Assembly: GCA_963815675.1 (NCBI GenBank)
Contig: CAWFHP010000007.1
Span: 37,302-101,301, forward strand
Direction of reading: 5' to 3'
Length of the DNA: 64,000 bases
Source: an uncultured Acidobacteriota bacterium
Lineage (GTDB): Bacteria; Acidobacteriota; Vicinamibacteria; Marinacidobacterales; SMYC01
Below the pieces are notes generated by a model that was given only the letters and a program-made list of their open reading frames with translations, did not search any database and was not told the DNA's origin. The translations under genes and the position numbers were made by a program. How positions within the stretch are numbered: position 1 is the first letter of the stretch; every line of letters begins with the position of its first letter. This document shows, in pieces, positions 1,413 through 24,200 of this stretch.

Positions 1413-3110
1413 TCATTTCCGCTCCAGCCCCAAAACCTCCACGCCCTGCTCGAACACCACGTCGACGGGAATGCCCCGACCCTCGAGTCTCTCGAGGTTG
1501 GCCTTCAGCGCCGGTCCCTCGATCTGATATTTCTCGTTGAAATGGCCCAGACCGTCATAGTCACCGTCCCCCTGGAACTTCAGGATGGTCGCGGTGAGCG
1601 CCCGAATTCCGTCTCTCATCTTGTCCACGTCGACCCGGTAGGTCTGACTAGCGCCATCGAACGCGAAAGCTCCCTTCTCGTCGAGAAACGCGAGCTGTAC
1701 CAGGTTCGCCCGACCGTGGGCATCGGCTGCGCCGAAGCGGACCGACCGCAAAATCGACGCGAAAAAAGTGACGTAGTTATCGCGGACCTCTTTGTCGGCG
1801 AGCTCTCCCCGCTTCGCGAGCTCTTCCACCATGAACAGACCGAGCACGTCCGCCTTCGCTTCCTCGAGGGCCGAAGCTCTTTCCTTGAGCGCGCTTCGCA
1901 CCGTTCCCTTCCCGTCGATCGTGTTCTTGATGCCGAGCCCGTGCGCCACCTCGTGAAACATCACGTTCTCGAAAAAAGCGTCGAAGTTGATCTGGTCCCG
2001 CTGGTCCTCCGCGATCAAGACACTGGTGATCGGCACCAGGATCTTGTCGAACTTGGCCCGCATCGCGTTCTTGAGCTGCAGCCGCCTCGTCCCTTTTTGC
2101 AGCTGAACCCCTTCGTCGTTGGGGAGATTCACCGCGATCGCCTTGACCCCGGAATTCGCGTCGCCCGCGTAGTAGACGACGTCGTAGGCGTTCAAGTCCG
2201 AATCGAGACCCGGAGCCTCGGCCTTGTACTCGTCGGGCACGGGCAGCACCTTCTGGAGCTCGGGGAGGAGCGTCACGTAACGGGTGAGCCGCGCGCTCCA
2301 CTCACGGTCTTTCACCAGCACCAGGGCCTCGTTCGCCGCTTTGTAGCCGAACAGCTCGTCCTCGTAGGTCTCGATGGGTCCGATCACGATGTCGAGAACG
2401 TTGTCCTTCATGTCCATCCAGGCCATGTCGCTCGGCCGGTAATCGTCGGTCTGGAGCGCTTTGGCCCGCAGCTCGAGATATCGCTTGAGTCCTGGATCTT
2501 CGGCGAGCGCGGCCGCCTGGCGGAGCTCATCGGAAGCGGCCCCGTAGGAATCCTCGAAGAACACCGAATAGGGGATCGCCTCGAGGGCCCCGTCCGCGTT
2601 TCGCCGTACCATCGTGTACTGGCTGCGCAGCGCCTGGCCTTTCTCGTCCGATGCCGAGGCGGCGGTCTCGAACTCCTCCTTCGTCATGTCCTCGGGATAG
2701 AAATTCGCGCCTTTGGGCTTGTCTTCGTAGCCCTCGACGAACGGCTCGTTCTCGTCGAGCCGGTCCCAAGGGCCGAAGTTGATCGTCGCGTAACGACGGG
2801 CATCCGGGTCGTCGAGCGACGACATGAGATCCTGCTCGTCGCCGTAGGACTGCTGCCAGAAGGCACGATCCATCGCCTGGGCGGCGCGGATGAGGTGCGG
2901 AATCATCTCGCGCTGCGACTCGGAGAGAGACGCCACGTCGGTCGTGAGCTGGACGCTGGTGTAGCGGGAGAGGCGGTCGGCCGCGCTCTTTCCCGTCTCC
3001 TCCTCGTCCTCGGATGGGGAAGGGGCGGGCGCGTGGCAGGCGCCGGCGAGACCGGCGAAGACGGTGGCGGCGACGACCGCAACGACGATGGCGAAGCTTT
3101 TTCGATTCAC
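1413..3110 (-). CDS. Dipeptidyl-peptidase III-like (M49) Zn hydrolase, lipoprotein
   Basis: Lipobox LAGAC; INFGPWDRL, GANFYP.DM.K.EF, IGPIETYED, FHEVAHGLG, LEEAKAD. Confidence 0.9.
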   Translation of the reverse strand: MNRKSFAIVVAVVAATVFAGLAGACHAPAPSPSEDEEETGKSAADRLSRYTSVQLTTDVASLSESQREMIPHLIRAAQAMDRAFWQQSYGDEQDLMSSLDDPDARRYATINFGPWDRLDENEPFVEGYEDKPKGANFYPEDMTKEEFETAASASDEKGQALRSQYTMVRRNADGALEAIPYSVFFEDSYGAASDELRQAAALAEDPGLKRYLELRAKALQTDDYRPSDMAWMDMKDNVLDIVIGPIETYEDELFGYKAANEALVLVKDREWSARLTRYVTLLPELQKVLPVPDEYKAEAPGLDSDLNAYDVVYYAGDANSGVKAIAVNLPNDEGVQLQKGTRRLQLKNAMRAKFDKILVPITSVLIAEDQRDQINFDAFFENVMFHEVAHGLGIKNTIDGKGTVRSALKERASALEEAKADVLGLFMVEELAKRGELADKEVRDNYVTFFASILRSVRFGAADAHGRANLVQLAFLDEKGAFAFDGASQTYRVDVDKMRDGIRALTATILKFQGDGDYDGLGHFNEKYQIEGPALKANLERLEGRGIPVDVVFEQGVEVLGLERK

Positions 3111-3838
3111 GATTGGATTCCTTTCAGGTAGGCCCTTCGGACGTTCTCGGGAAACTTCTCGATGGCGTAGCGCAGCATGGTGCGCGGCATCTTCCGGTGG
3201 TGGGCCCGGAGGAAGCCTTCCTCCGCCTTCCGGTCGCGGTTTCCAACTTCCCTCAGCATCCAGCCGACAGCTTTGTGGATCAAGTCCTCCTCGTCGTCCC
3301 GCAGAATGCGGGCGATGGCAAGGGTGTCCTCGAAATCACCATTCTTGATATAGCGCAAAGTCGCGAGAATCGCGATCCGGCGCTCCCAGAGATTGCGGGA
3401 GGACGCCCAGCGATAGAGCGGCTCGCGGTCCTTGTCCTCCAGATAGCCGCCCACGATGGTGGGAGCGCTCGCGTCGACCAGATCCCAGTTGTTCACACGC
3501 TCCAGATTCTTCCGGTAGAGCCGATAGATTCGACGCCGTTCGCGCTCGTCGCCGCGCTCGAAGGCCGCGAGCAGGATGAAGAGCGCCACGGCGCGCTCTT
3601 CGTGCCACGGTGATTGCAGGAGCTTCTCCAATTCCGAAGCGTGGAGGCCGCGCGCCCGTTTCGCCACGCGGCGGCAGCCGGGCACGGTGACTCCGAGAAA
3701 GCGATCTCCCGCGCCGTACTCCCCCGGGCCGGTCTTGAAGAAGCGCAGGAGGATCCGGGCTTTGTCGGGGTCGGCGAGCTTGCGGAGCTCTCCGCGCGCC
3801 CGCGATGCCGTATGGAGGATGGCCTCGCGCTCGCTCAT
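3107..3838 (-). CDS. alkD: DNA alkylation repair protein (AlkD family)
   Basis: FFKTGPGEYG.GD.FLGV, NNWDLVD, LWERR, DLIHKAVGWMLRE.G; start taken at MSERE. Confidence 0.92.
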   Translation of the reverse strand: MSEREAILHTASRARGELRKLADPDKARILLRFFKTGPGEYGAGDRFLGVTVPGCRRVAKRARGLHASELEKLLQSPWHEERAVALFILLAAFERGDERERRRIYRLYRKNLERVNNWDLVDASAPTIVGGYLEDKDREPLYRWASSRNLWERRIAILATLRYIKNGDFEDTLAIARILRDDEEDLIHKAVGWMLREVGNRDRKAEEGFLRAHHRKMPRTMLRYAIEKFPENVRRAYLKGIQS

Positions 3839-3848
3839 CCGTCGTCCG

Positions 3849-6226
3849 TCAGAACAGGCGCAGCTGCGCGTCCAGAATGTCCGCAACCGACGTTCCCCTG
3901 ACTCTCAGGAGTGCGTCCGCAGCGGGAGCGAGCTGACGATCCAGGTAGTGTTGATGGTCGATGGGAGAGGGGTTGTTGTCGAGCGGCTCGGGTCCGGCGG
4001 TGGTCACGACGTAGCGAACCCAGCGCTCCCGGCGCTCGCCGCTGTGTGACTTGAGCGCGGCCTGCACGTGAGGGGGTACGTTCTTCCGGTAATCCTCGAG
4101 TCGCCGGCGGAGACGCTTGCGGTAGACGAGGTCGCGATCACGCTTGCCGGCGAACAGGTCCGCGGCCACCGAGCGCACGTAGTCCTCGAAGGGCTCGTCG
4201 AAGAAGATCCGGCGATAGAGCTCGCGCTGGAACTCGCGTGCGAGGGGCGTCCAGTCGGAGCGGACGGCCTCGAGCCCGGTGAACTCCAGGACGAGCCCGC
4301 CCTCGCGGCGTACCAGGCCGGCGTAGCGTTTCTTGCTGCCGAGCTCGGAGCCTCGAATCGTCGGCATGAAGAAACGCAGATGGTGGGCCTCGAACTGGAG
4401 CTCGAGATATGACGTGAGCCGGTAGCGTTCGGCGAGCTCAGCGGCCCAAGCCCGGTTCAAGTGCGCGGCGAGACCCTGCCCGACCCGAAGGCATTCCTCC
4501 TCACTCGGCCCCGATCCTGAGAAGCACGAACAACGAATCGGTGTCGCCGTATATGACGCGGTGTCCCTCCTTCTCGATCCACTCGCGGCTTCGAGTGATG
4601 ATCTCCGTGGCCGCGCAGGGTGATGCTCGCGGCGAGCCGCGGCTCGAAGAATCGGCAGCCGGGCGTTCCCAGCACACCGTAGAAGGAGTTCATGATGATC
4701 TTGATTGCGCGCGAAGTTGCCTCGCTCCCCGCCGCCTTCGCGCGATCGCGCGCGCGCCAGATGTCCGCGATGAGACCGGGGAGGATGTGGCGGTCGCGGG
4801 AGAAGCGCGCCCCCTGGAAACCCGGCACCGGGTCGTCGTCTCCATCCGCGTCGGCGAGACCGAGAGGATCGACGAGGAACGTCCGAATGATGCTCGGGTA
4901 GAGGCTCTTGAAGTCGAGAACGAGAACGTTCTCGAACAAGCCCGGCTCGGAGTCGAGGACGTAACCTCCCGGGCTCGCCACGTCGGTCACGTGCTCTTCG
5001 ACGTCCCGCGCCACCCGGCCTTTCCGGTGGAGGCGCGGAAGATACAGATTGTCGAAAGCGGCCACCGAGCCGCCCACCCGGTCGAGGGCGAGGCCGGTGA
5101 GCTGGGCTCTTTCGAGCGCGAAGGCGATGAGCTCGGTGCGCTGGAAGATCTCCTCCACCAAACGGCAGTCTTCCACGTTGTAGCGCACGAGCTCCCAGGG
5201 TTGGTCGCGGTATAGGCGGCGAATCTCCTCAATCTTGTCCGAGCGATGCTCGATGAGCTTTCCCCGGCCCAGGAGCTCGAGCGCGACGGCGTCGAGCCCG
5301 AAGTCCTCGAAGCTCCAGGTGGCGGTACGCAGCGTATCGATGCCGTCGAGCACCGCCCTTCCCGGGATCCGAGCGGTTTTCTTCCCGTTAGGCGACGATG
5401 AAGCGAGCACCGTTGCCCGATCCCGGCCCCGACCGGGGGCGAACGCGAGGTTCAACCGCCGACAAGTGCGCTCGAGGAGATCGAGGTCGAACTCGACGAC
5501 GTTCCATCCGATGATGACGTCGGGGTCGGCTTCCTTGAGAAAGGCGAAGAACTCCTCGAGAAGCGTAGCCTCGTCGTGATGAACGGTGAGCTCCACTCTC
5601 TCTTTCTCCTCATCGATACGCTCGCCGTGTCGCGCGTGATCCCACTCGGGAAAGCGGAGGAGAAAGGCGCGCGCGCGCGATCCGACGGAGGCGGCAATGG
5701 AATAGAGGGTCTCGTCGTCCCCGTCGGTCTCGATGTCGAGCGACAGCACCGAGAGCTCCGGGCGGAAATCGGCGGGAGCGACTCGAGGGTTACGGTACTC
5801 GCGGAACCCCTCGTGTTGCGTGAACGGGCCCTCGACCCGGACTCCCCCGGTCACGAAGTGCTCCATGAGGAACCGGTCGGAGGGCTTGACGTCGGACTCG
5901 TAGAGCCGAATTCCCCGGGAGCGTAGGCGCTTTCGCGCGTCGACGAGTTTGCGACGGCTCTGAAAATAGAGCCCGTCGACGGCGACTCCGTCGAGGGTGC
6001 GCAGCTCCAGGCGCCGGGACCGGCAGCCGAGCTCTGACGCCTCGACACGGCCATGTTCCACGAAGGCCACCGCTTCTTGACCGTCGAGCTCGATCCGGAT
6101 CGCGCCCGACTCTCCCTTGGCCCAGAAGACGAGCGTCAGTCCTCGGGGTCCATCGCGCCATTGGCGCGTCAGCAGGAACGCGTTTTCCGCCGTCGCCGTC
6201 AAAATCAACGCCGGGGGAGCAGCCAC
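3849..6226 (-). CDS. polB: DNA polymerase II (family B), split by frameshifts near 4600-4460
   Basis: Exonuclease SLDIET, GWNVVEFD; polymerase DFKSLYPSII, KIIMNSFYGVLG, YGDTDS (shifted frame), GSKKRYAG, GLE.VRSDWTPLA. Confidence 0.93.
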
Positions 6227-8772: not shown

Positions 8773-9510
<738 letters not shown>

Positions 9511-9685
9511 TCACGGCCGCTGCGCCGCGAAGATCTGCAGCGCTGGATGCATCCGGTGCGCGCTTTCGGCTGTCCAACTCGGTCCAGACCGAGTAACGAA
9601 TCTACCCACTCCGGACGATAAACTGCCGGCCGCACGAGGTCACGAGCGCGGGTGGTGACGACGTTGGAGCGGTGAATCTGACGAC

Positions 9686-11956
9686 TTAGACCTTCCCACC
9701 GAGCCCCATCCGGTCGAGGAGCCGGGAGAATCGGTCGTCTCCACGAAGAGGCTCGAACTCGGGGGAGGCGGTCACGAGGACGAGAGAGCCGTCCCTCTCC
9801 TCGGCGGCTCGATTCAACCATTCGAACACCGCGTCGGTATCTCCCGTCCCGAGACAGGCCACGGCAATCCAGAGCGAGGAGGCCTGCCCCTGCCGGGAAC
9901 GCTCCATGACCTCGTCGAGGAGCTTTCGCGCTTGCGCCGCGTTGCCCGCGAGCCCGTGTCCGTACGCGAGGATCCCCACGTGGTTGACCGAGCGCCCCCC
10001 GAGACGGGCCGACTCCTCCCAGGCGGCGATGGCGTCCGCGTAGCTTCCCTGCTGGGCGCGCACGTCGCCGATACCGTAGTGCGCGAAGGCGAAATAAGGG
10101 TCGATCGCGAGAACGGATTGAAACTGAACGAGCGCTCGCTCGAAATCGCGCAGAAAGTAATGCACGTATCCCATCTGCGTTTTGATCCTGAGGTCGAGGG
10201 GATCGAGGGCCTCCGCCCGGCGGAGCTCGTCGAGCGCCTCATCGTAGCTTCGCTCCAGAAGCGCCAGGCGCCAGGCGTTCCAGAGTCTCGTGTCGGCAGA
10301 GCTGGGATTGAGCTCCAGGGCGCGGCCGAAGCACCGTTCGGCGGCGACGCGGTCCCAGTCGTGATTCATGGCGATCAGGCCGAGCACCCGGTGGACTTCG
10401 GGAAGGTCCGGTGCGAGCTCGAGCGCTCTTCTTCCCGCCGCGCGCGCCTTCGGAATCGTCTCTTCCGCCCGCCTGGTCCCGATTCCCGAGTAGAACCAGA
10501 CGTGACATTCGGCGAGCGCGGCATAGGCCAGCGCGTATTCGGAGTCTTTCTCGATCGCGTCTTCGAAGCAGGCGATGGCGCGCTCGACCCAGTCCTCCGT
10601 CCAATGGTTCATGGCATAGAGCCCGTGGAGGTAGGCGTCGTAGGCCTCCATGTTCGATGCACGGCGCGCGTCGCTTCTCTCCTTCGAGAAGCCGAGCTCG
10701 GATTGGAGCTCGGCGACGACCGTCTCCGCGATCTCGTCCTGAATGGCGAACACGTCGTCGAGCTCCCGGTCGAATCGCTTCGACCAGAGCTGATAGCCGT
10801 CGGTGGTGTCGCTCAAAAGGACGGTGACCCGGATTTTCGTGCCCGCTTTGCGAACGCTCCCCTCGAGCACGGTCTCGACGTTCAGGCGCTCTCCGATCTC
10901 TCGGGCGTCGAGTCCCGCCGTATCGAGCGAGAACGAGGAGGTCCGTGCGAGGACGCGCAAGCTTCGGTCGCTCGCGAGAACGTTGATGAGCTCCTCGGCG
11001 AGTCCGTGGCAGAAGTACTCCTGATCCTTGTCGGGGCTCAGATCCCGGAAGGGCAGAACGGCGATCGACGAGTGCTTGGGGCGGGGTGGAGCCGAGGAGA
11101 GAGCGGGCGAAGTCGCACCCGCTCCCACCCGGACCCAATCGGCGAGCAGCTCTCGCGTGGATTGATATCGACGCGCAGGATTCTTCTCCAGAGCCTTCTC
11201 GAGAATCCGCACCAGATCCGGGGGGAGAGCCGGGTTGAGCGAGAGGGCAGGCGCCGGCGGTTTGTTCAAGAGCGCGTCGAAGAAGGCGGCGAGCGTGTCT
11301 CCGCGGAAGGGGTTCTTTCCCGTCGCCATCTCGTACACGAGAACGCCGAGGGCGAACAGATCCGCTCGGGCGTCCACGTTCCGGCCGAGCGCCTGCTCGG
11401 GCGCCATGTAGCCGGCCGTGCCGAGCGTCATTCCCGGGCTGGTCTCCCTCGCCATCGTCACGGCATCCGCGTCCGCCCCCGGCGGAAGCAGAAGCTTGGC
11501 GAGCCCGAAGTCGAGGAGCTTCACCCGGCCGTCGTCCGTCACCATCACGTTGTCCGGCTTGAGGTCCCGATGGAGGACCCGGGCGTCGTGGGCGGCCCCG
11601 AGTCCCTCGACGACCTGACGGACGATGGCGACGAGCGGTTCGATTCCAAGCGGCCCCCGTTCGAGGAGCTCCCGGAGGCTCGAGCCCTCGACCCGCTCCA
11701 TGACGAGAAAGACGAGACCCTCCTGCTCTTCCACCGAATGGATGGTGACGATGTTGGGATGGTTCAGCGAGGCGAGAGCTTTCGCTTCGCGCTCGAAACG
11801 CTTTCTACGCTCGGGCTCGGCCGCCGTCTCCGGGGGAAGGAACTTGAGCGCGACCTTTCGTCCGAGCCGTTCGTCTTCCGCGACATAGACTTCACCCATG
11901 CCCCCGGCGCCGAGACGTTCGAGAACGAGGTAGTGACCGAGCTTCTTTCCTATCAC
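9686..11956 (-). CDS. Ser/Thr protein kinase with TolB-N-like and TPR domains
   Basis: GAGGMGEVY, VALK, HRDLKPDN, DFGLAK, YMAPEQ; SIAVLPF.DLS..DQEYF; TPRs. Start GTG 11956 overlaps the upstream stop. Confidence 0.93.
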   Translation of the reverse strand: MIGKKLGHYLVLERLGAGGMGEVYVAEDERLGRKVALKFLPPETAAEPERRKRFEREAKALASLNHPNIVTIHSVEEQEGLVFLVMERVEGSSLRELLERGPLGIEPLVAIVRQVVEGLGAAHDARVLHRDLKPDNVMVTDDGRVKLLDFGLAKLLLPPGADADAVTMARETSPGMTLGTAGYMAPEQALGRNVDARADLFALGVLVYEMATGKNPFRGDTLAAFFDALLNKPPAPALSLNPALPPDLVRILEKALEKNPARRYQSTRELLADWVRVGAGATSPALSSAPPRPKHSSIAVLPFRDLSPDKDQEYFCHGLAEELINVLASDRSLRVLARTSSFSLDTAGLDAREIGERLNVETVLEGSVRKAGTKIRVTVLLSDTTDGYQLWSKRFDRELDDVFAIQDEIAETVVAELQSELGFSKERSDARRASNMEAYDAYLHGLYAMNHWTEDWVERAIACFEDAIEKDSEYALAYAALAECHVWFYSGIGTRRAEETIPKARAAGRRALELAPDLPEVHRVLGLIAMNHDWDRVAAERCFGRALELNPSSADTRLWNAWRLALLERSYDEALDELRRAEALDPLDLRIKTQMGYVHYFLRDFERALVQFQSVLAIDPYFAFAHYGIGDVRAQQGSYADAIAAWEESARLGGRSVNHVGILAYGHGLAGNAAQARKLLDEVMERSRQGQASSLWIAVACLGTGDTDAVFEWLNRAAEERDGSLVLVTASPEFEPLRGDDRFSRLLDRMGLGGKV

Positions 11957-14239
11957 GGTGGTGGAGGAAAGAGCGACTTTCCGCACTTGCAGCGCGAGGA
12001 CTCCGGAGTCCCCTTGTACCAGACGCGGGTGTGGCATTCGGGGCAGGTCCAGCTGCATTCGAGCTCCGCGATGCGGGCGAGCGCGGCCTCGACTTCGCTC
12101 TCTCCGGACTTCCCCCGACTGGCATGGGCCTCGACGTTGAGCGTAGCCTGAACGTCCGCTTCGAGGTTCTTCAGCAAGGGCTCGATCGACGCGAGCATGG
12201 GCTTCGCGTGCTCCCTGATCGCGCGGCGAACCCCCTTGAAGAGCTCACCGAGCTCGCGCCGGTCGTTCGCCGTTCCCCGCCGAAACGGAAGGTCGGCCTG
12301 GAGCCGCTCGCGAATCTCCTGAAGCAGCTCCTCCAAGGCCCGCCTCGCCTTCGTCGCGGCGCCGTTGACGTCCGCCTGCGCGAGTCGGTCCTGCGCTTCT
12401 CCGAGGATACCGACCGAATCGTACTTCGTCGTTCTCGGTCCCCCGTCGTAGCTCCAGGAGGTAATCTCGAGGCGCTTCCACGACGGCGCGCGACGGGACA
12501 GATGCTCGAAGAACTGATGGTCGTGGGTGAGCACGATGAGCTGCCAGTCGTCGAACTTCTCGGCGAGCAACGAGGCGAGCTGTCCGCGATGCTCTACGTC
12601 GAAGCTGTTGATCACGTCGTCGAGCACGAGGAAGCGAAGCTTCTCGTTGAAGGTCTGCGCCATCGCGAGAAACAAGGCGATGGCGAGAGAGTTCAAGTGC
12701 GACTCGCTGAGCACCCCATGAGGAGGCCTCTGCCTCGAGCCGTGAAAGTCGACGGCGAGCTCGATCCCCTTGGCCGTCCAGGGCTCGACGGTGATCCCGC
12801 GCAGGTCCTCTCCCGGATGGAGTGCCTGGTAAATCTCCGCCACGCGCAGACTGATGCTCTCCAGGATTCCCTCGAGCTGCTCCTTCTGGCGCTTCTGATA
12901 GGCGTCGTAGACACGCTCCGCGAGCGCGAGAGCCCGCTTGGCGCGCTCCTGCTCCGCCGCCGCCGAGCGCCAGACCTGGATCTGACCCGCGAGCCCCGCG
13001 AGCATCGCGAGCTGGGCGCCACGCTTGTCATTCGGGCTGGATGCGTCGTTGGAAGCGCTCGCGACCGCGGCGCGTGCGCTCTCGTCCCAGCGCGCCACCG
13101 AGCCGCAAAGCTCCTCGACGACGGCGGAATCCAGGACGGCGCCCCGTTCCAATGCCGTCGAGAACGCCTCGGGAACCGAAGGAGGCTCGGGAAGCTCGAC
13201 ACCGTTCGCACGCGCCTGAGCGAAGAGGGCACGGCAATCCTGCACGGCCCCATTCAATCGATCGCGGAAGCCCCGCAGCGCCCCGGCCGCTTCCTCCGCT
13301 TCCCGCGAGCGATCCAGCAAGCCGGTGAGGGTGGAGCGAACGTTCGCCGCGAGCTCCGCGCCGTCCACGTCCTGTCCGCATAGGGGGCAATGCTCCACGG
13401 GCGCCTTCGACGCAGAAAGGAGCGCATCGCCGTCCTTCAAGAGCGTCAGCCAGTCGACGTCTCGGTGCTTCCCCGATTCCACGACGGCGTTCCACGCGCG
13501 GAGTGCCTCGGCATCGAGCTCCGGCGCTCGAAGAGATTCTACGAGCGCGTCGAAGCTCGGAGCGGTCCTCTGCGGTGCTTCCCCGGCGACGGTCGCGATC
13601 CAGAATCGGGCTCGCCACTCTCTCGAGCGAAGAGGGCACGTCTACCGAGAGACTCCGGCAGAACGCCTGCACGTTCGCGAGGACTCCCTCTTCGCTCACC
13701 GGACTTCCGTCGGGCGAGAGCGCGCTCTCGCTGGCCTTCACCTTCTCCCCCGCCGATTTCGCCTGCTTCTTGAGGTCGGTTCGGATCCGTTGCAAGTCCC
13801 CGCGGAGCTCTTCGACGGCGTCGAGCCCGAGGATCTCGGCGAGCGCCTTCCATTTCTCCGTCTTCGACTTGTTGATGAAGTCGGCGAGAGTCCGTCCACG
13901 AAGGAGGAACGTCTCTCGTGCACCGACATCGAACGCCTCCGGCAAACGCTCGTCGGGAAAGGCCACCTTTCCGCCCAGGACGCCGGAGGTCGTCAGCTCG
14001 ACCGAAGTATCTCCCTCCGAAGCCCCTCCGAGATTGCGCACGGCATGCTGGCGTCCCTCGTGCGAAAGAAGCTCAATCTCGCCGGTAAAGAACCACTCCA
14101 GAGCGTCGGCAATGGTGCTCTTTCCGGTGCCGTTGTCGCCGTAGACAGCGATGCTCTTTCCCTCGCCGAAGTCGATGGTGAGCTCACCGGGAACACCCCG
14201 GAACGACCGCATGGTCAACCGCTGGAGCCGTTCGCTCAC
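11953..14239 (-). CDS. Rad50/SMC-like ABC ATPase with zinc hook and possible HEPN-like C-terminus (RloC-like); frameshifted at ~13600-13500
   Basis: FRG motif, Walker A GDNGTGKS, coiled coils, CPLCGQ, signature LSESH, Walker B LVLDDV.NSFD, H-loop LTHD, terminal CPEC...CKCG. Confidence 0.85.
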
Positions 14240-14394
14240 GGCGCCGACTCCTCGATGAGGCGCTGGATTCGCTCGGCCCGTTCCTCGGGCGGCAGGTCGA
14301 CGAGACCCTCGAGTCGCTCGGCGAATCCCGCGGGAAGATCGTCGAGGCTATCGAGAACGGAATGAAGAAACTCACGGAGGTTGGGACGCTGCAC
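14236..14394 (-). CDS. Small hypothetical protein, 52 aa (MQRPNLREFLHSVLDSLDDLPAGFAERLEGLVDLPPEERAERIQRLIEESAP); not in the ORF track
   Basis: Manual translation; GAGGAG RBS just upstream of GTG; TGA overlaps the ATPase start (GTGA). Confidence 0.75.
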   Translation of the reverse strand: MQRPNLREFLHSVLDSLDDLPAGFAERLEGLVDLPPEERAERIQRLIEESAP

Positions 14395-14510
14395 CGCTTC
14401 TCCTCGATTTACCGGTAGGAAATTCTAACCGAGCCGGGACCGGAGTACGAGCGCGAAGCGAGGAGAGGCATTCGGATTCCGGGAGCTCGGGCGACGTCCT
14501 TCCTTTTTGC

Positions 14511-14516
14511 TAGAAT
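14511..14516 (+). promoter_or_regulatory. Extended -10 box (TGnTAGAAT) 6 nt before the GTG start; probably a leaderless transcript
   Basis: tttttgcTAGAATcacccc-GTG, no Shine-Dalgarno. Confidence 0.6.
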
Positions 14517-14522
14517 CACCCC

Positions 14523-17500
14523 GTGCTCAGCCAGGCGCGCCCTCGTCTTCGCTCCGAGGAAGCGGAGAGTCTCGTCCGGAACACTTTCGGCATCGACGCG
14601 ACCTTCGTCTCCGAGCTTCCGAGCGAAAGGGATCAGAACTTCCTGCTGCGGGAGGCGTCGGGACGTGAGCTCATCCTGAAGATCGCGAGCGCCGCCGAGG
14701 CGCGGTCCATCCTCGATTTTCAGAACCAGGCACTCGAGCGAGTCGCTCGCCGCAATCCAAGCCTTCCCGTGCCCAGGCTCCGGAACACCCCCGCGGGCGC
14801 CACCATCGCGGACGTCATCGACGGGAATGGCGGAGCCCACTTCTGCCGCCTCTTCGACTACCTTCCCGGACGGCCGCTCGCCTCCGTTCGCCCCCATCGA
14901 GACGAGCTCTTGCGGAACGTCGGAAGATTCATGGGTCGGCTCGACGTCGCTCTCGCCGACCTTTCGCACGAAGCCGAGTCGCGCCCGCTCAAATGGAGAG
15001 TCGAGAACGCGCGGGAGATTCTGAACGACGGGATCGCGCTCACGGAGGGTCCCGACGAGCCCGACAAGAAAGACCTGCTCCGTTTCTTCCTTGCGCTCTT
15101 CGAGACGGAGGTCGAGCCCCGTCTCCGCGCGCTTCCCCGTGGAGCGATTCACAACGACGCCAACGACTACAACCTGCTGGTCGACGACAAGGGCGACGTT
15201 TCGGGAATCCTCGACTTCGGAGACATGGTCGAAGGTCCGCTGGTCGCCGAGGCCGCGAACGCGGCCGCTTACTGCATGCTCGACGAGCGGGATCCGCTAC
15301 GCGCCGCGAGACTCGTCGTCTCCGGCTACCACGAGAAGAGACCTCTCGGCGAGGACGAGCTCTCGGTCCTCTTCCCTCTCATCGCGACTCGCCTCGCGAT
15401 GAGCGTCTCCATCTCCGCGCGGCAATTCCGGGACGAGCCCGACAAAGAGTATCTGCGGGTCAGCGAAGCGGGCGCGTGGCGGCTCCTCTCCTGGATTCGC
15501 CAGCAGCCCGAGCGTCTCGGCCGTTACGCGCTCCGGGACGCCTGCGGATTTCCTCCCCACCCCCGCGCGTCCGCCGTCGCGGCGTTTCTCGAAGAGCATT
15601 CTCGCTCGGCCTCACCCGTTCTCCCCTGGCCGCTCGCGAACGAGAAGCTCCATATCTTCGACCTCGGCATAGATTCGACCGAGCTCGGCGGCCTCGACGT
15701 CCTGGAGACCGCCGAACGTTTCACCCGGCACCTGTTCGAGCGCATGAGGCGCGACGGCGCCCGGGTCGGCGTGGGTCGCTACGACGAGCCCCGTCCCATC
15801 TACACTTCCGAGGCCTTCAAGCCCCGCCCCGGAGATCCGGCGGAGCCGCGAACGGTGCACCTCGGGATCGATCTGTTCGTCGAGGCGGGAACCGAGATCC
15901 GCGCTCCGCTCGAGGGAAAGGTCCACAGCTTCGCGTTCAACGATGCGCCTCTCGACTACGGACCGACGATCCTGCTCGAGCACGCGGCCGCGGGAGGAGA
16001 CCGATTCTTCACCCTCTACGGTCACCTCTCTCTCGATTCTCTCGAGGGACTCGAGCAGGGAAAGCCGGTGAAGGCCGGCGAGCTCATCGCACACGTCGGA
16101 AACTATCCGGTGAACGGAAACTGGCCCCCCCACCTCCATTTCCAGATTGTCCTCGACCTCCTTGGAAAGCAAGGCGACTATCCGGGGGTGGCGGCACCGT
16201 CCGAGCGCACGAATCTGGCTCGGTCTCTCACCCGACCCGTCGCAGCTTCTCGGGCTTCCACCCCGTGCGCGAGCGCCGCGCCCGGAGAAAGAACGCATCC
16301 GCGCCGGGCGCCGGGAGCATCTCTCGGGGGCACTGAGCGTTGCGTATGAAGAGCCCGTCCATATCGTGCGCGGCTCCGGCTCGTTCCTCTACGACGCCGA
16401 AGGGCGGGCCTATCTCGACATGGTGAACAACGTCTGCCACGTCGGACATTGCCACCCGCGGGTCGCGCGCGCGCTCTCGGAGCAGGCGGCGGTCCTCAAT
16501 ACCAACACCCGGTACCTCCACCGGAACATCGTGGCGTACGCCGAGCGGCTCGCGGCACTCCTTCCCTCCCACCTGGAAGTCGTGTTCTTCGTGAACTCGG
16601 GAAGCGAGGCCAACGATTCTCGCGCTCCGGCTCGCGCGCACCCACACGAGACGGAAAGACACGCTCGTCTTCGACGGCGCCTATCACGGGAACCTGACCT
16701 CTCTCATCGAAGTGAGTCCCTACAAGTTCGACGGACCGGGCGGCCAGGGGGCTGCACCTCACGTGCACAAGCTCGACATGCCCGACCCCTATCGAGGCGC
16801 GCATCGAGGCTCCGGCCCCGATGCAGGAAAGAGCTACCTCGAAGACGCGAAGCGGATCCTCGACGGGCTCGCCGCCGAGGGGCGGCCCGCCGGAGCCGTC
16901 ATCGCCGAGGCGATCTTGAGCTGCGGGGGACAGATCGTTCTTCCCCCCGGGTATCTCGCGTCGCTTTTCCGCGCCGTGCGCGAAGCGGGTGGAGTCGCGA
17001 TCGCAGACGAGGTGCAGGTTGGATTCGGCCGGGTCGGCTCTCACTTCTGGGGGTTCGAGAGCGAGGGCGCCTCGCCCGACATCGTCACGATGGGAAAGCC
17101 CATCGGAAACGGCCATCCTCTCGCAGCGGTAGCCACGACCCGCGAGATCGCCCGCTCGTTCCAGACGGGGATGGAGTACTTCAACACTTTCGGGGGAAAC
17201 CCCGTGTCCTGCGCCGTAGGTCTCGCCGTTCTCGATGTCATCGAGAGCGAGGGGCTCCAGGAGAACGCCCGCATCCAGGGCGATTACCTCCTCGAGGATC
17301 TCGGGAGTCTCATGAACGACCATCCGATCCTCGGCGACGTCCGCGGGCGAGGACTCTTTCTCGGGTTCGAGATGGTGACCGATCGGACGAGCCTCGCCCC
17401 CGCGGCCGACGAAGCCTCCTGTCTCGCGAACCGAATGAAGGAAGAAGGAATCCTCGTCTCGACCGACGGCCCGCTTCACAACGTCATCAAGCTCAAACCC

Positions 17501-17584
17501 CCTCTCGTCCTCTCTCGCGGGAGCGCCGACCGCTTCCTCGAGACGCTCGGGAGGGTGCTCGGCGAGGATCGTTTCCGCCGATGA
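14523..17584 (+). CDS. Fusion of APH-like (hydroxylysine kinase-type) phosphotransferase, M23-like domain and class III PLP aminotransferase; frameshifts ~16210 and ~16620
   Basis: [26 protein letters not shown]; HLGIDLF, YGHLS, HLHFQ; [37 protein letters not shown]. Confidence 0.9.
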
Positions 17585-22658: not shown

Positions 22659-23890
22659 ATGACATACCGACGTCGGGAGTTGTCGGGGTTGGCGGGCGAC
22701 GCCCTCGAGACCATGCCGGTGGTAGTGATTACCGGACTTCGTCAATCTGGAAAGACGACGTTCCTGCAGCAGGACCCGATCTTTCGAGGGCGGCGCTTCT
22801 ACTCGTTGGATGATTTCGCGGTATTGGAGGCGGCCCGTCGAGACCCGGACGGGCTCGTCGCGGGCGAGGAACCGATCACCATCGACGAAGCCCAACGCTG
22901 TCCCGAGCTTCTTCATTGCCGTAAAGCGCGCCGTCGACCGCAAGCGGCGGGCAGGACAGTTCGTTTTGAGCGGCTCGGCAAACCTGACTCTCCTGAGTGC
23001 CGTGACCGAGTCACTGGCTGGAAGAGCTCTGTACTTGAAGCTCACGCCATTTACTCGACGGGAAGCTCGAGAAGATGCTCGTCACGGAAACCCTTTACCT
23101 CGCGAAACTCCTCGAGGGACAAAACCCGGGGCGCACCGCGCGCCGCCGAGCCAATACGCGAGCGCGAGATGCCTCATGGGGGGATGCCGACCATCGTCAC
23201 CGGGGAGGCGAAACGCCCCCACCTCTGGTTCCTGGGCTACGAACAGACGTATGCTCGAGCGCGATACTTCGCGATCTCGCGCAGTGTGGCGGATCTCGTT
23301 GCCTTCCGTTCTTTGATGCGCCTCGCGGCCCTGAGGACGGGACAGATACTGAACCAGAGCAATCTGGCTCGCGACGTCAAGCTTCCCGCCAGCACCGTGA
23401 CCCGATACCTCGACCTTCTTGAAACATCGATGATTCTGGAGAAGGTGGAGCCGTATCTGAGAATCGGACGGCCCATCTCATCAAGTCGCCGAAGATCTGC
23501 ATGAGCGACTCCGGCATCGCGGCTCACCTGACCGGAGTCGAGAACCTCGGCGCCGACGCAGATGCAGCCGATGAGGGGGCCACTCTTCGAGACCTATGTT
23601 TACCAGAATCTCGCGGGGATCCTCGCATCCCGGCTCCCGCGCTACGAGCTGGGCTTTTGGAGCGTACAGGGAAGGCACGAGCTCGACTTCGTCGTTTGGC
23701 GTGGACGCGACGTCGTCGCCATCGAAGTCAAGGCCAAACGCCGGTTCCATGAAAAAGAGCTGGGCGGTTTGCGGGCATTCATGAACAAGACGCCGGGCAT
23801 CCGCGCGGCCGTGCTCGCATACAACGGAATCGAAACGGTGAAGCTGGAAACAGGCTGTACGCGGTACCGATCGCCACACTCGTTTCGTGA
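22659..23890 (+). CDS. AAA_14 ATPase with DUF4143 domain, multiply frameshifted
   Basis: TGLRQSGKTT, IDEAQR.PEL, GQFVLSGSANL, ESLAGR, GGMP, DSG, LFET.V, ELDFV, AIEVK. Confidence 0.85.
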
Positions 23891-23965
23891 AAGGCGGGTA
23901 ACACCCGGCGCCTACGTCACGATATGTTGCGGGCCATCTGATGCCACTCGTCGCCGATTCTCGAC

Positions 23966-24200
23966 GGACATCGCCCACATTTATGGGCTCGAAGACAGCA
24001 GTGATACGACCGCGCTCGTTCTCGAGCTCGTCGATGGGACGACCCTCTCCGTCGGAGCGCCCAGAGTGCGGCCCCGCTCGACGAGGCTCTCTTGATCGCA
24101 ACGCGGATCGCGGACGCTCTCGAAGCGGGGCATGAGCGAGGCGTCATCCCCGCGATCTCAAGCCACCGACATCAAGCTACGGCGCGAAGGGGTCGTGAAA
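23966..24200 (+). pseudogene. Internal remnant of a Ser/Thr kinase domain
   Basis: IAHIYGLE...ALVLELVDG.TL, then DEALLIA.RIADALEAGHERGVI.RDLKP and GVVK in shifting frames. Confidence 0.7.

Follow-up and report, generated by a model that had tools for sequence, protein, structure and literature searches.

RloC, represented in Pfam by AAA_13 (PF13166) and known from Geobacillus kaustophilus (GkaRloC), is an anticodon nuclease that excises the wobble nucleotide; nucleases of this type are thought to be switched from within and to move as solitary genes. Among defence systems that contain a protein kinase, Stk2 and PD-T4-6 have been tested experimentally. According to PMC2610378, RloC is defined by ABC motifs like those of PrrC together with an insert of coiled coil and CXXC zinc hook, and by a C-terminal motif Arg-X3-Glu-X36-52-His in which Ser often precedes His, the residues named for GkaRloC being R692, E696, H737 and C291. 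The nuclease of PrrC and RloC belongs to the HEPN superfamily and is fused to ABC ATPases (PMC3710099), and DNA-dependent ATP hydrolysis together with the zinc hook is described as an internal switch of the RloC nuclease (PMC3458546). In Lamassu, a Rad50/SMC-like ATPase senses viral DNA ends and releases an effector (PMC12663957). PbeABCD contains an ABC ATPase with a zinc hook of the CxC type and a fast-evolving small protein, PbeB, predicted to be a negative regulator or to interact with the trigger (PMC10853773), and in RAZR phage proteins are recognised by a zinc ribbon, which also drives assembly (PMC13017515). Here we describe a three-gene operon, encoding a 52-aa microprotein, an RloC-like ATPase and a Ser/Thr kinase with tetratricopeptide repeats (TPR), in a 64,000-nt stretch of DNA from an uncultured Acidobacteriota bacterium (GenBank assembly GCA_963815675.1, contig CAWFHP010000007.1, positions 37,302 to 101,301, forward strand; hereafter the window). 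The system is an uncatalogued, microprotein-partnered variant of the RloC theme with an added zinc ribbon and a clade-specific kinase, for which we infer a role in biological conflict.

As listed in Table 1, the three open reading frames (ORFs) follow one another in tandem on the minus strand, and their coordinates are those reported by an earlier reading of the letters and translations of the window (the first-pass annotation). This reading had also described GTGA start/stop overlaps between all three genes, and inspection of the junction sequences bore it out: the microprotein gene ends in ...CCG TGA where the ATPase gene starts with GTG AGC (common GTGA at 14239-14236), and the ATPase gene ends in ...CCG TGA where the kinase gene starts with GTG ATA GGA (common GTGA at 11956-11953). 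The kinase ORF is extendable to an ATG at 12058; because homologues align from residue 1-3 of the version that begins at GTG-11956, we placed the start there, directly past the ATPase stop. The ATPase gene is open in two frames, 14239-13028 in one and 13482-11953 in the other, and is treated here as the protein obtained by reading through a single extra base, which is considered further below.

Of the two Pfam families that the first-pass annotation had pointed to for the ATPase, AAA_23 was matched by the N-terminal piece (50.2 bits, with SMC_N, AAA_15 and AAA_29 under threshold), and AAA_13 stayed below its cut-off of 36 in the C-terminal piece (24.7 bits, beside an equally sub-threshold SMC_N match of 31.7 bits). 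A sequence search of the PDB returned only the heads of Rad50, SMC and ABC-F proteins, among them the Rad50 head chain 3qf7 on residues 503-583 of P0003, an intact 761-aa homologue, and residues 590-761 were left unmatched. We then relied on an alignment (A3) of 93 family members ranging from 78% down to 22% identity to P0003, whose numbering is used throughout. G39 and K40 of the P-loop are nearly invariant in it; in the hook C284 and P285 are invariant and C287 is conserved in at least 90% of the sequences; and L539, D540, D541, D547, R551, Q566 and H572 of the C-lobe are invariant. Walker A, the signature, Walker B with the D-loop and the switch His are all present in the window translation and, over the 93 sequences, invariant or nearly so. 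On these signatures the second gene is assigned to the Rad50/SMC-type ABC ATPases, with head halves split by an insert that carries a CPLC hook; the split head and hook claimed at first reading are thus upheld by the Pfam and PDB head matches and by the conservation over 93 sequences. The gene is present in a single copy in the window genome, intact homologues measure 731-777 aa, and the family comprises 691 cluster representatives at E <= 1e-30.

Beyond the head, no Pfam match was found in the C-terminal part of 13 diverse family members, and DUF4145 in particular gave no sequence match in the Pfam scan. An AlphaFold2 model of the last 178 residues of the window protein (11956-12489), built from an input alignment of 94 rows, reached a mean pLDDT of 93.2 and consists of a small hairpin, a bundle of long helices and then short strands around cysteines. 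The best Foldseek rows were HEPN structures, namely 2q00 (E 8.7e-3, probability 1.0), 2hsb, 4nqf, Csm6 5fsh and 1o3u. VIA-align, run against 48,161 chains, placed 2hsb first with rmsd 2.3 over 116 residues and a Z of 12.1, a value that by itself counts against a firm assignment since for helical bundles a Z under about 13 can reflect the commonness of the fold alone; next came SsR10, the Roquin HEPN region, TT1696, 4nqf, sacsin HEPN, Csm6 and HEPN-MNT toxins, and 12 of the 16 best entries are HEPN by title. In ESM Atlas the HEPN part matched unnamed clusters, one row carrying AAA_13 on 29% of its members with a score of 0.81, below the trust level. The residues conserved in this part are W587, G600, R632, E636, H705 and cysteines 732, 735, 750 and 752. 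By column counts R632 is kept in 91, E636 in 92, N701 in 82, S or A at 704 in 81 and H705 in all of the 93 sequences, which gives a near-invariant motif R-x3-E...N-x2-[S/A]-H, and the four ribbon cysteines are kept in 93, 93, 93 and 91. We accepted the HEPN fold because HEPN entries fill the top ranks and because R, E and H are conserved. In this high-confidence model of the last 178 residues, a HEPN domain thus precedes a Cys4 zinc ribbon.

For comparison with RloC, the phylum was searched with PF13166 (401 genomes); 11 genomes exceeded the cut-off and six proteins covered the whole model. Seven RloC-type AAA_13 proteins (alignment A6) carry CPFC at around residue 265-283, RRILE and, about 37 residues further on, H-x-x-S-H. 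Profile comparison of A3 with A6 gave a probability of 99.4% and E 8e-22 over 190 columns, and the aligned stretch begins in the head's C-lobe and reaches the first helix of the HEPN domain, placing R632 and E636 on R650 and E654. The likeness extends to the plan of the protein: a single polypeptide of about 750-800 aa with a Rad50-like split ABC head and a C-terminal domain of the HEPN RNase type, a CxxC hook near residue 285-290, R-[RK]-x-L-E and N-x-x-[S/A]-H in the present family against R-R-x-L-E and H-x-x-S-H in the seven AAA_13 proteins, and a patchy distribution. These features, together with the HEPN fold and its R-x3-E...[S/A]-H residues, which that reading had missed in this protein, agree with the RloC-like character assigned at first reading. 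We regard the ATPase as homologous to that of RloC, with architecture and motif logic common to both, as judged from the profiles and motifs.

Several points weigh against an RloC-based interpretation. The C-terminal domains taken alone align over only 16 columns and one helix (E 0.015, probability 3%). The spacing from E to H is 68 residues, outside the published 36-52. AAA_13 remains below its cut-off not only in the C-terminal piece but also in the genome search (23.9 bits), and its match is limited to profile positions 487-581; of the 13 members scanned only P0151 passes it (54.4 bits), without the nuclease part. In contrast to RloC, moreover, the nuclease domain is not recognised by AAA_13, an extra Cys4 ribbon is present that has no counterpart in the RloC-type proteins, a near-obligate microprotein gene stands upstream where none of the seven RloC-type genes has one, and one clade has a linked kinase-TPR gene. 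The spacing of 68, the ribbon, the sub-threshold AAA_13 match and the position of residues 589-761 outside the PADLOC models led us to treat this as a family separate from RloC, and, as the family falls below the AAA_13 threshold, to call it RloC-like rather than RloC. In passing, one RloC-type AAA_13 gene (L127) is preceded by a 451-aa ORF at 59-1414 that looks Argonaute/PIWI-like by eye.

The microprotein has 12 D/E against 6 K/R residues and a pI of 4.5, and its GTG start follows a GAGGAG ribosome-binding site at 6-7 nt. In tblastn searches it was found directly upstream in every fetched genome locus that holds the ATPase start, the matches being weak in one record from Micromonosporaceae (E 0.03) and one from Polyangiales (E 1.3). 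Its occurrence was surveyed in 80 metagenome loci, 62 of which were eligible, i.e. contained the ATPase start together with 170 nt or more of upstream sequence. With a hidden Markov model (HMM) made from eight seeds, a microprotein ORF ending at the ATPase start was detected in 42 of 44 closer-clade loci, and the two misses (L086 and L096) have a divergent ORF at the equal place. In the distant clade, where the ATPase is 26-36% identical, 17 of the 18 eligible loci have a different ORF of 57-73 aa at that place. The two small-protein families (A4 and A5) showed no profile similarity in hhalign (probability 0.2%) and have only position, size and acidity in common, the median net charges being -6 and -4 and the pI about 4.6. 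In ten ungapped pairs the dN/dS of the microprotein was 0.13-0.36; two more, either misaligned or too distant, were left out of the count. At the seven RloC-type genes neither HMM detected an upstream microprotein ORF at E <= 10. We take the microprotein, on this conservation, to be a real and selected gene and a conserved partner of the ATPase; the small partner protein proposed in the first-pass annotation has therefore gained in substance.

The window microprotein had no match in Pfam, PADLOC or NCBIfam and no usable match in ESM Atlas. A reading of it as a ribbon-helix-helix (RHH) DNA binder was tried and dropped as unsupported, because RHH_1 matched only weakly (7 of 30 proteins, best E 0.0016; a NikR row at E 0.33), the proteins are acidic, with the median net charge of -6 given above, and the supposed strand looks helical by eye. 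In genome G025 (L035), a second, near-identical but truncated microprotein copy lies at 337-615 and runs into unrelated sequence, beside a 425-aa ORF at 755-2029 that resembles a transposase by eye; it is probably the trace of a second, disrupted copy of the system.

The third gene matched Pkinase in Pfam with 171.5 bits plus several TPR families. All 23 full-length orthologues compared carry the motifs GxGxxG, VALK, HRDLKPxN, DFG and APE unchanged, and conservation is as high over the TPR part as over the kinase part (mean majority fractions 0.76 and 0.75), which characterises the product as a predicted Hanks-type kinase with intact catalytic motifs and a conserved TPR region. In 27 of the 80 metagenome loci the ATPase gene is followed directly, on the same strand, by a kinase orthologue (53-69% identical, full-length or truncated by the contig end), at a junction that varies from a 4-nt overlap to a gap of about 170 nt. 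In L052 the orthologue is convergent to the ATPase, and none was found in 41 further loci that have 600 nt or more of downstream sequence. Among 41 related genomes, orthologues with 59-69% identity occur in exactly the seven genomes of family f1 that have the ATPase, always adjacent to it, and the next-best kinase matches anywhere in these genomes reach 46% or less. G025, of family f2, has GmrSD downstream of the ATPase instead of the kinase, and G218, from another family of the class, has microprotein, ATPase and kinase in a row.

A quick maximum-likelihood tree of the ATPase (IQ-TREE; C-terminal 240 residues, 78 rows; L073, L098 and L100 left out for internal stops, as were loci whose match ended before residue 750) joined all 34 kinase-linked rows and L045 in one clade with an SH-aLRT of 94, which requires one change. 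On this tree the kinase-TPR gene was recruited once and kept as part of the cassette. The first-pass annotation had cautioned that the gene might be incidental, kinase-TPR genes being abundant; for this lineage the caution can be lifted, since orthologues occur only beside the ATPase and form one clade with it. L045 (region 3444-5952), the closest metagenome relative, has an intact microprotein gene and a 760-aa ATPase; of its kinase just residues 1-40 and 662-753 are left, as a remnant beyond a convergent 709-aa peptidase-like ORF. The kinase is not required for carrying the ATPase-HEPN gene, because kinase-less clades and L045 keep microprotein-ATPase pairs. In two genomes the unit is incomplete: in G016 (L036 / G016:C24) ATPase and kinase are both broken into several frames, and in G014 (G014:C176) only an N-terminal ATPase fragment is left next to the kinase, in either case through decay or assembly errors.

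Table 1. Features of the microprotein, ATPase-HEPN and kinase-TPR operon, in window coordinates
Feature	Position	Strand	Basis or remark
Upstream intergenic region	14395..14522	-	Between the microprotein gene and the divergent APH/M23 ORF; holds GAGGAG
Microprotein gene, 52 aa, GTG start	14236..14394	-	ORF list and HMM of upstream ORFs
RloC-like ATPase-HEPN gene, ~761 aa read through	11953..14239	-	Broken by one extra base
Site of the frameshift: TT pair with a surplus T (plus strand: A)	13604..13605	-	Frames, homologues and run contigs
Walker A / P-loop GDNGTGKST	14114..14140	-	Translation; AAA_23, AAA_29 and ABC_tran matches
CPLC zinc-hook motif, in the insert between the head halves	13378..13389	-	93-sequence conservation
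C-terminal half of the ABC head, approximate bounds	12490..12900	-	LSESHLN, FLVLDDV, NSFD, LTHD; SMC_N/AAA_13 matches
HEPN-fold domain; putative catalytic R 12345-12343, E 12333-12331, H 12126-12124	12052..12426	-	Model and fold searches
C-terminal Cys4 zinc ribbon (CPEC...CKC)	11983..12045	-	Cysteine conservation, model
Ser/Thr kinase-TPR gene, 756 aa from GTG at 11956	9686..11956	-	Pfam Pkinase and TPR
Kinase domain ~11929-11147; conserved middle region; TPR region ~10627-9707	within 9686..11956	-	Pfam

The unit is flanked on one side by a divergent plus-strand gene from 14523 with APH and M23 domains, and on the other by a convergent plus-strand gene of the Exo_endo_phos family that ends at 9510. 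The G+C content, 0.65-0.66 over 10-14 kb as in the flanks, stays level throughout and thus marks no compositional island. A promoter scan found no sigma-70-like consensus in 9300-14700, and of terminator-like sites two were found, fewer than in shuffled sequences (mean 3.5), none of them convincing. Genes of DNA metabolism lie near the operon, namely a DNA alkylation repair enzyme (3110-3886, minus strand), DNA polymerase B (4460-6226, minus strand) and the Exo_endo_phos gene (8773-9507, plus strand); these neighbours are specific to the window genome and not common to other loci.

To describe how the unit is distributed we compared the 41 related genomes, eight of which have ATPase orthologues (G000, G001, G003, G010, G011, G025, the broken copy of G016 and the fragment of G014). 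The 41 include G027, flagged as unpublished, which had no ATPase match and kinase matches at the paralogue level only, and the conclusions are equal without it (n=40). The ATPase was not found in most of these relatives, including genomes that are 98-99% complete, and of 400 other genomes, sampled evenly across the phylum, one had it (G218). More distant relatives were found in Micromonosporaceae and Polyangiales records. The flanking genes beyond the three vary between loci. Since the arrangement recurs in dozens of independent loci, it is far beyond chance, and the unit is accessory and mobile in character.

Gene context was scanned in the 80 metagenome loci and about 10 genome loci; for kinase-less loci, 29 selected downstream ORFs were examined by Pfam and 12 proteins, two of them the ATPases, by PADLOC. 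A helicase of about 840 aa resembling ResIII/REase_III lies directly downstream in seven loci of the distant clade (one blastp cluster, of which three were scanned), and in L104 a YhcG PDDEXK nuclease stands between ATPase and helicase. The helicase loci (L104, L108, L109, L111, L112, L114 and L123) have their own acidic mini-ORF of about 60 aa, which looks like a separate three-gene variant. L073 has GmrSD, also matching type IV restriction models, and L075 a type II methyltransferase plus HerA. In L077, whose aligned ATPase segment is identical to those of L078, L082 and L088, ZacA of the Azaca system (DUF6361; PADLOC E 3e-127, 10374-11624) follows the ATPase-HEPN gene at 43 nt. The neighbour is an NTase in L122 and L124, with HEPN in L124, and an AAA_5 protein in L087; the other kinase-less loci have ordinary enzymes (DLH, UbiA, hydantoinase, beta-CASP, RNase_T) or no match. 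Among 76 flanking ORFs in ten kinase-clade loci, one CHAT-TPR protein was the sole conflict-type gene, and no restriction or other known defence genes were found. The support from defence islands therefore comes from the wider family and not from the kinase clade. The first-pass annotation had presented the unit as a candidate defence system; both neighbours of the ATPase do recur in homologous loci and kinase-less relatives often stand beside defence genes, which sustains that proposal, and the expected placement in defence islands fails for the kinase clade, whose loci lie outside them.

Known systems were compared one by one. PADLOC recognised only the generic ATPase part: the best match was LmuB PDLC03859 (E 5e-28, residues 117-588 of P0003 on model positions 158-597 of 611), the mad3, PDC-S06 and PbeC models match the head only, and no model covers residues 589-761. 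The operon resembles Lamassu in having a Rad50-like putative sensor that would control a toxic effector and in the LmuB match to its ATPase part. In contrast to Lamassu, effector and ATPase form one polypeptide, the partner protein has 52 aa and the LmuB models stop before residues 589-761; neither neighbour matched LmuA or LmuC (the microprotein had no PADLOC match and the kinase matched only kinase models). With PbeABCD, a sister of DndD, it shares an ABC ATPase with a zinc hook and, putatively, coiled-coil arms, preceded by a small protein; the SF2 helicase after the ATPase in the distant clade recalls PbeA, the PbeC HMM matches weakly over only the first ~60 residues (the P-loop region), and Sp-DndD (PF20306) matches weakly in 3 of 30 microproteins (best E 0.017). 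It differs in that the hook is CxxC, not CxC, and in the fusion of a HEPN effector to the ATPase, and the neighbours scanned with Pfam included neither a DndE-like (double-RHH) nor an HKD gene. Kinase-containing defence systems (Stk2, PD-T4-6, PglW of BREX, MAD6 of MADS) likewise have a Hanks-type kinase in a defence operon or candidate defence operon, and the kinase domain matched the PD-T4-6, mad6 and PglW models, in the generic kinase domain only; they are without the TolB-like/TPR C-terminal part and the ATPase-HEPN partner seen here. RAZR, by analogy only, also has a Cys4 ribbon next to a divergent HEPN RNase, but with the domain order reversed, in a small, stand-alone protein without an ATPase. 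Full-text literature searches turned up no description of the ATPase-HEPN family, the microprotein or the kinase link, although the supplements of HEPN/Dnd surveys may list related architectures.

Taken together, these comparisons make it fairly likely that the three-gene operon is a conflict module, for defence or abortive growth, built around an RloC-like protein, and by analogy it would probably be used against phages or DNA damage. In such a module the ATPase-hook part would monitor DNA for ends, damage or foreign replication intermediates, as in RloC and Lamassu, and would then license the HEPN RNase to cut tRNA or another RNA, so that translation stops. The microprotein would most likely bind the ATPase-HEPN protein, either as an antitoxin-like brake or as an element displaced by the trigger, and the zinc ribbon may mediate assembly or recognition of the trigger, as in RAZR. 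The kinase-TPR protein would add a second sensory or regulatory input or act as a co-effector; it is dispensable for keeping the toxin silent, given that intact pairs of microprotein and ATPase occur where it is absent. A fuller version can be put forward tentatively: the operon may belong to a distinct immune family in which an obligatory acidic microprotein gates the ATPase-HEPN-ribbon protein, as a DNA-mimic-like brake or as a receptor of the trigger, in which individual clades add the TPR-kinase, a restriction-type helicase or GmrSD, and in which phosphorylation by the TPR-kinase is a second, protein-sensing input to an abortive-infection RNase. The surroundings of the kinase clade and the phage records speak against a conflict role. 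Apart from the CHAT-TPR protein, the 76 flanking ORFs examined in ten kinase-clade loci were metabolic, transport, regulatory or housekeeping genes, the flanks in the window itself are ordinary, and among 50,697 phage records the only match was to the P-loop, in eight Cellulophaga phage records.

The explanation that competes best with a conflict module is that of a stress-response or addiction unit, toxin-antitoxin-like and without a dedicated anti-phage role, in which the microprotein would act as a labile antitoxin and the ATPase-HEPN protein as a toxin freed upon DNA damage, with the kinase as a tie to cellular signalling. The layout is that of a classic type II toxin-antitoxin system, with a small upstream gene overlapping the start of a larger HEPN gene; the kinase-clade loci are found among housekeeping genes and not in defence islands; RloC itself has been proposed to respond to genotoxic stress (PMC3458546); and DNA polymerase B and the DNA alkylation repair enzyme lie near the window operon. 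The kinase-less relatives beside GmrSD, ZacA, methyltransferase with HerA and restriction-type helicases point the other way, and the very patchy distribution (one in 400 sampled genomes) fits defence as well as it fits addiction modules. We consider a pure addiction or stress unit unlikely, though it deserves to be kept in mind, and the addiction and defence readings are not mutually exclusive.

It is quite improbable that the ATPase is a Rad50/SbcC-like paralogue for DNA repair or chromosome handling whose C-terminal domain only binds nucleic acid or nucleotides and is no toxin. Its best sequence matches are indeed Rad50/SMC heads, the LmuB, mad3 and archaeal SMC-related models match it, DNA repair genes are near in the window, and some HEPN domains are non-catalytic (PMC3710099). 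A repair protein would hardly explain, however, that no nuclease partner of the Mre11/SbcD type occurs in the neighbourhoods scanned, that R, E and H of the HEPN motif are kept in 91-93 of 93 sequences, and that the gene was not found in most relatives, even some that are 98-99% complete, or in 399 of the 400 sampled genomes.

The frameshift in the ATPase gene raises the question of whether the unit is functional in the window genome. The two pieces, N from 14239 to 13598 (214 aa) and C from 13596 to 11956 (547 aa), are in different frames and meet at ...ERVASPI | WIATVAGE..., where the intact P0003 has a continuous SPLWIATVAGE. P0003 (86% identical) and a second intact 761-aa homologue, P0004 (76%), cross the break. 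The repair that the first-pass annotation called for could be made with these homologues and with contigs from public sequencing runs, which located one extra base at 13604/13605. The base is left out in X1, X2 and X3, i.e. in all three of the contigs that cover the site (placed on 13300-13900 and at least 99% alike; X4 does not reach it); these contigs are of low depth (2.6-4.3) and the source sample may itself be among the runs, which makes the evidence good and not final. Three further genes within 24 kb are split in like manner: DNA polymerase B into two ORFs (Pfam positions 20-188 and 277-410; 3852-6226, minus strand), a class-III aminotransferase (positions 10-99 and 151-403; 16270-17581, plus strand) and a DUF4143 ATPase (positions 10-67 and 104-159; 22659-24092, plus strand). 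This suggested indel errors of the assembly, and the frameshift is probably one of them; the system is therefore probably intact in the organism. That the gene is a true pseudogene in a decaying unit is very improbable: the window sequence does carry the frameshift, the G016 copy is broken at several places and G014 has only a fragment, but the extra base is missing from the covering run contigs, each half is an open frame apart from the break and is 86-88% identical to the intact homologue, and at least three neighbouring genes are broken in the same way. Least probable is that the kinase-TPR gene is an incidental neighbour, a view to which its hundreds of paralogue matches (E <= 1e-60 over the 41 genomes, nine in G000), the kinase-less clades, which show that the core works without it, and the intact pair with a mere kinase remnant in L045 lend some colour, and which the restriction of full-length orthologues to the vicinity of the ATPase, the single clade with its one change, the variable flanks beyond the three genes, the overlaps or short gaps in 27 loci and the equal triad in G218 render highly implausible.

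In summary, the operon adds to a Rad50-like putative sensor fused to a predicted HEPN RNase a coupled microprotein and, in one clade, a dedicated kinase, which imply extra layers of control that current catalogues miss. The frameshift of this assembly is not to be taken as gene decay. Gene callers usually skip genes of 52 aa, and the present case illustrates that a gene of such a size can belong to the conserved, selected parts of a system. If the microprotein is indeed a brake or a receptor of the trigger, it would offer a simple handle on how DNA sensing is coupled to RNA cleavage in Rad50-like sensors.

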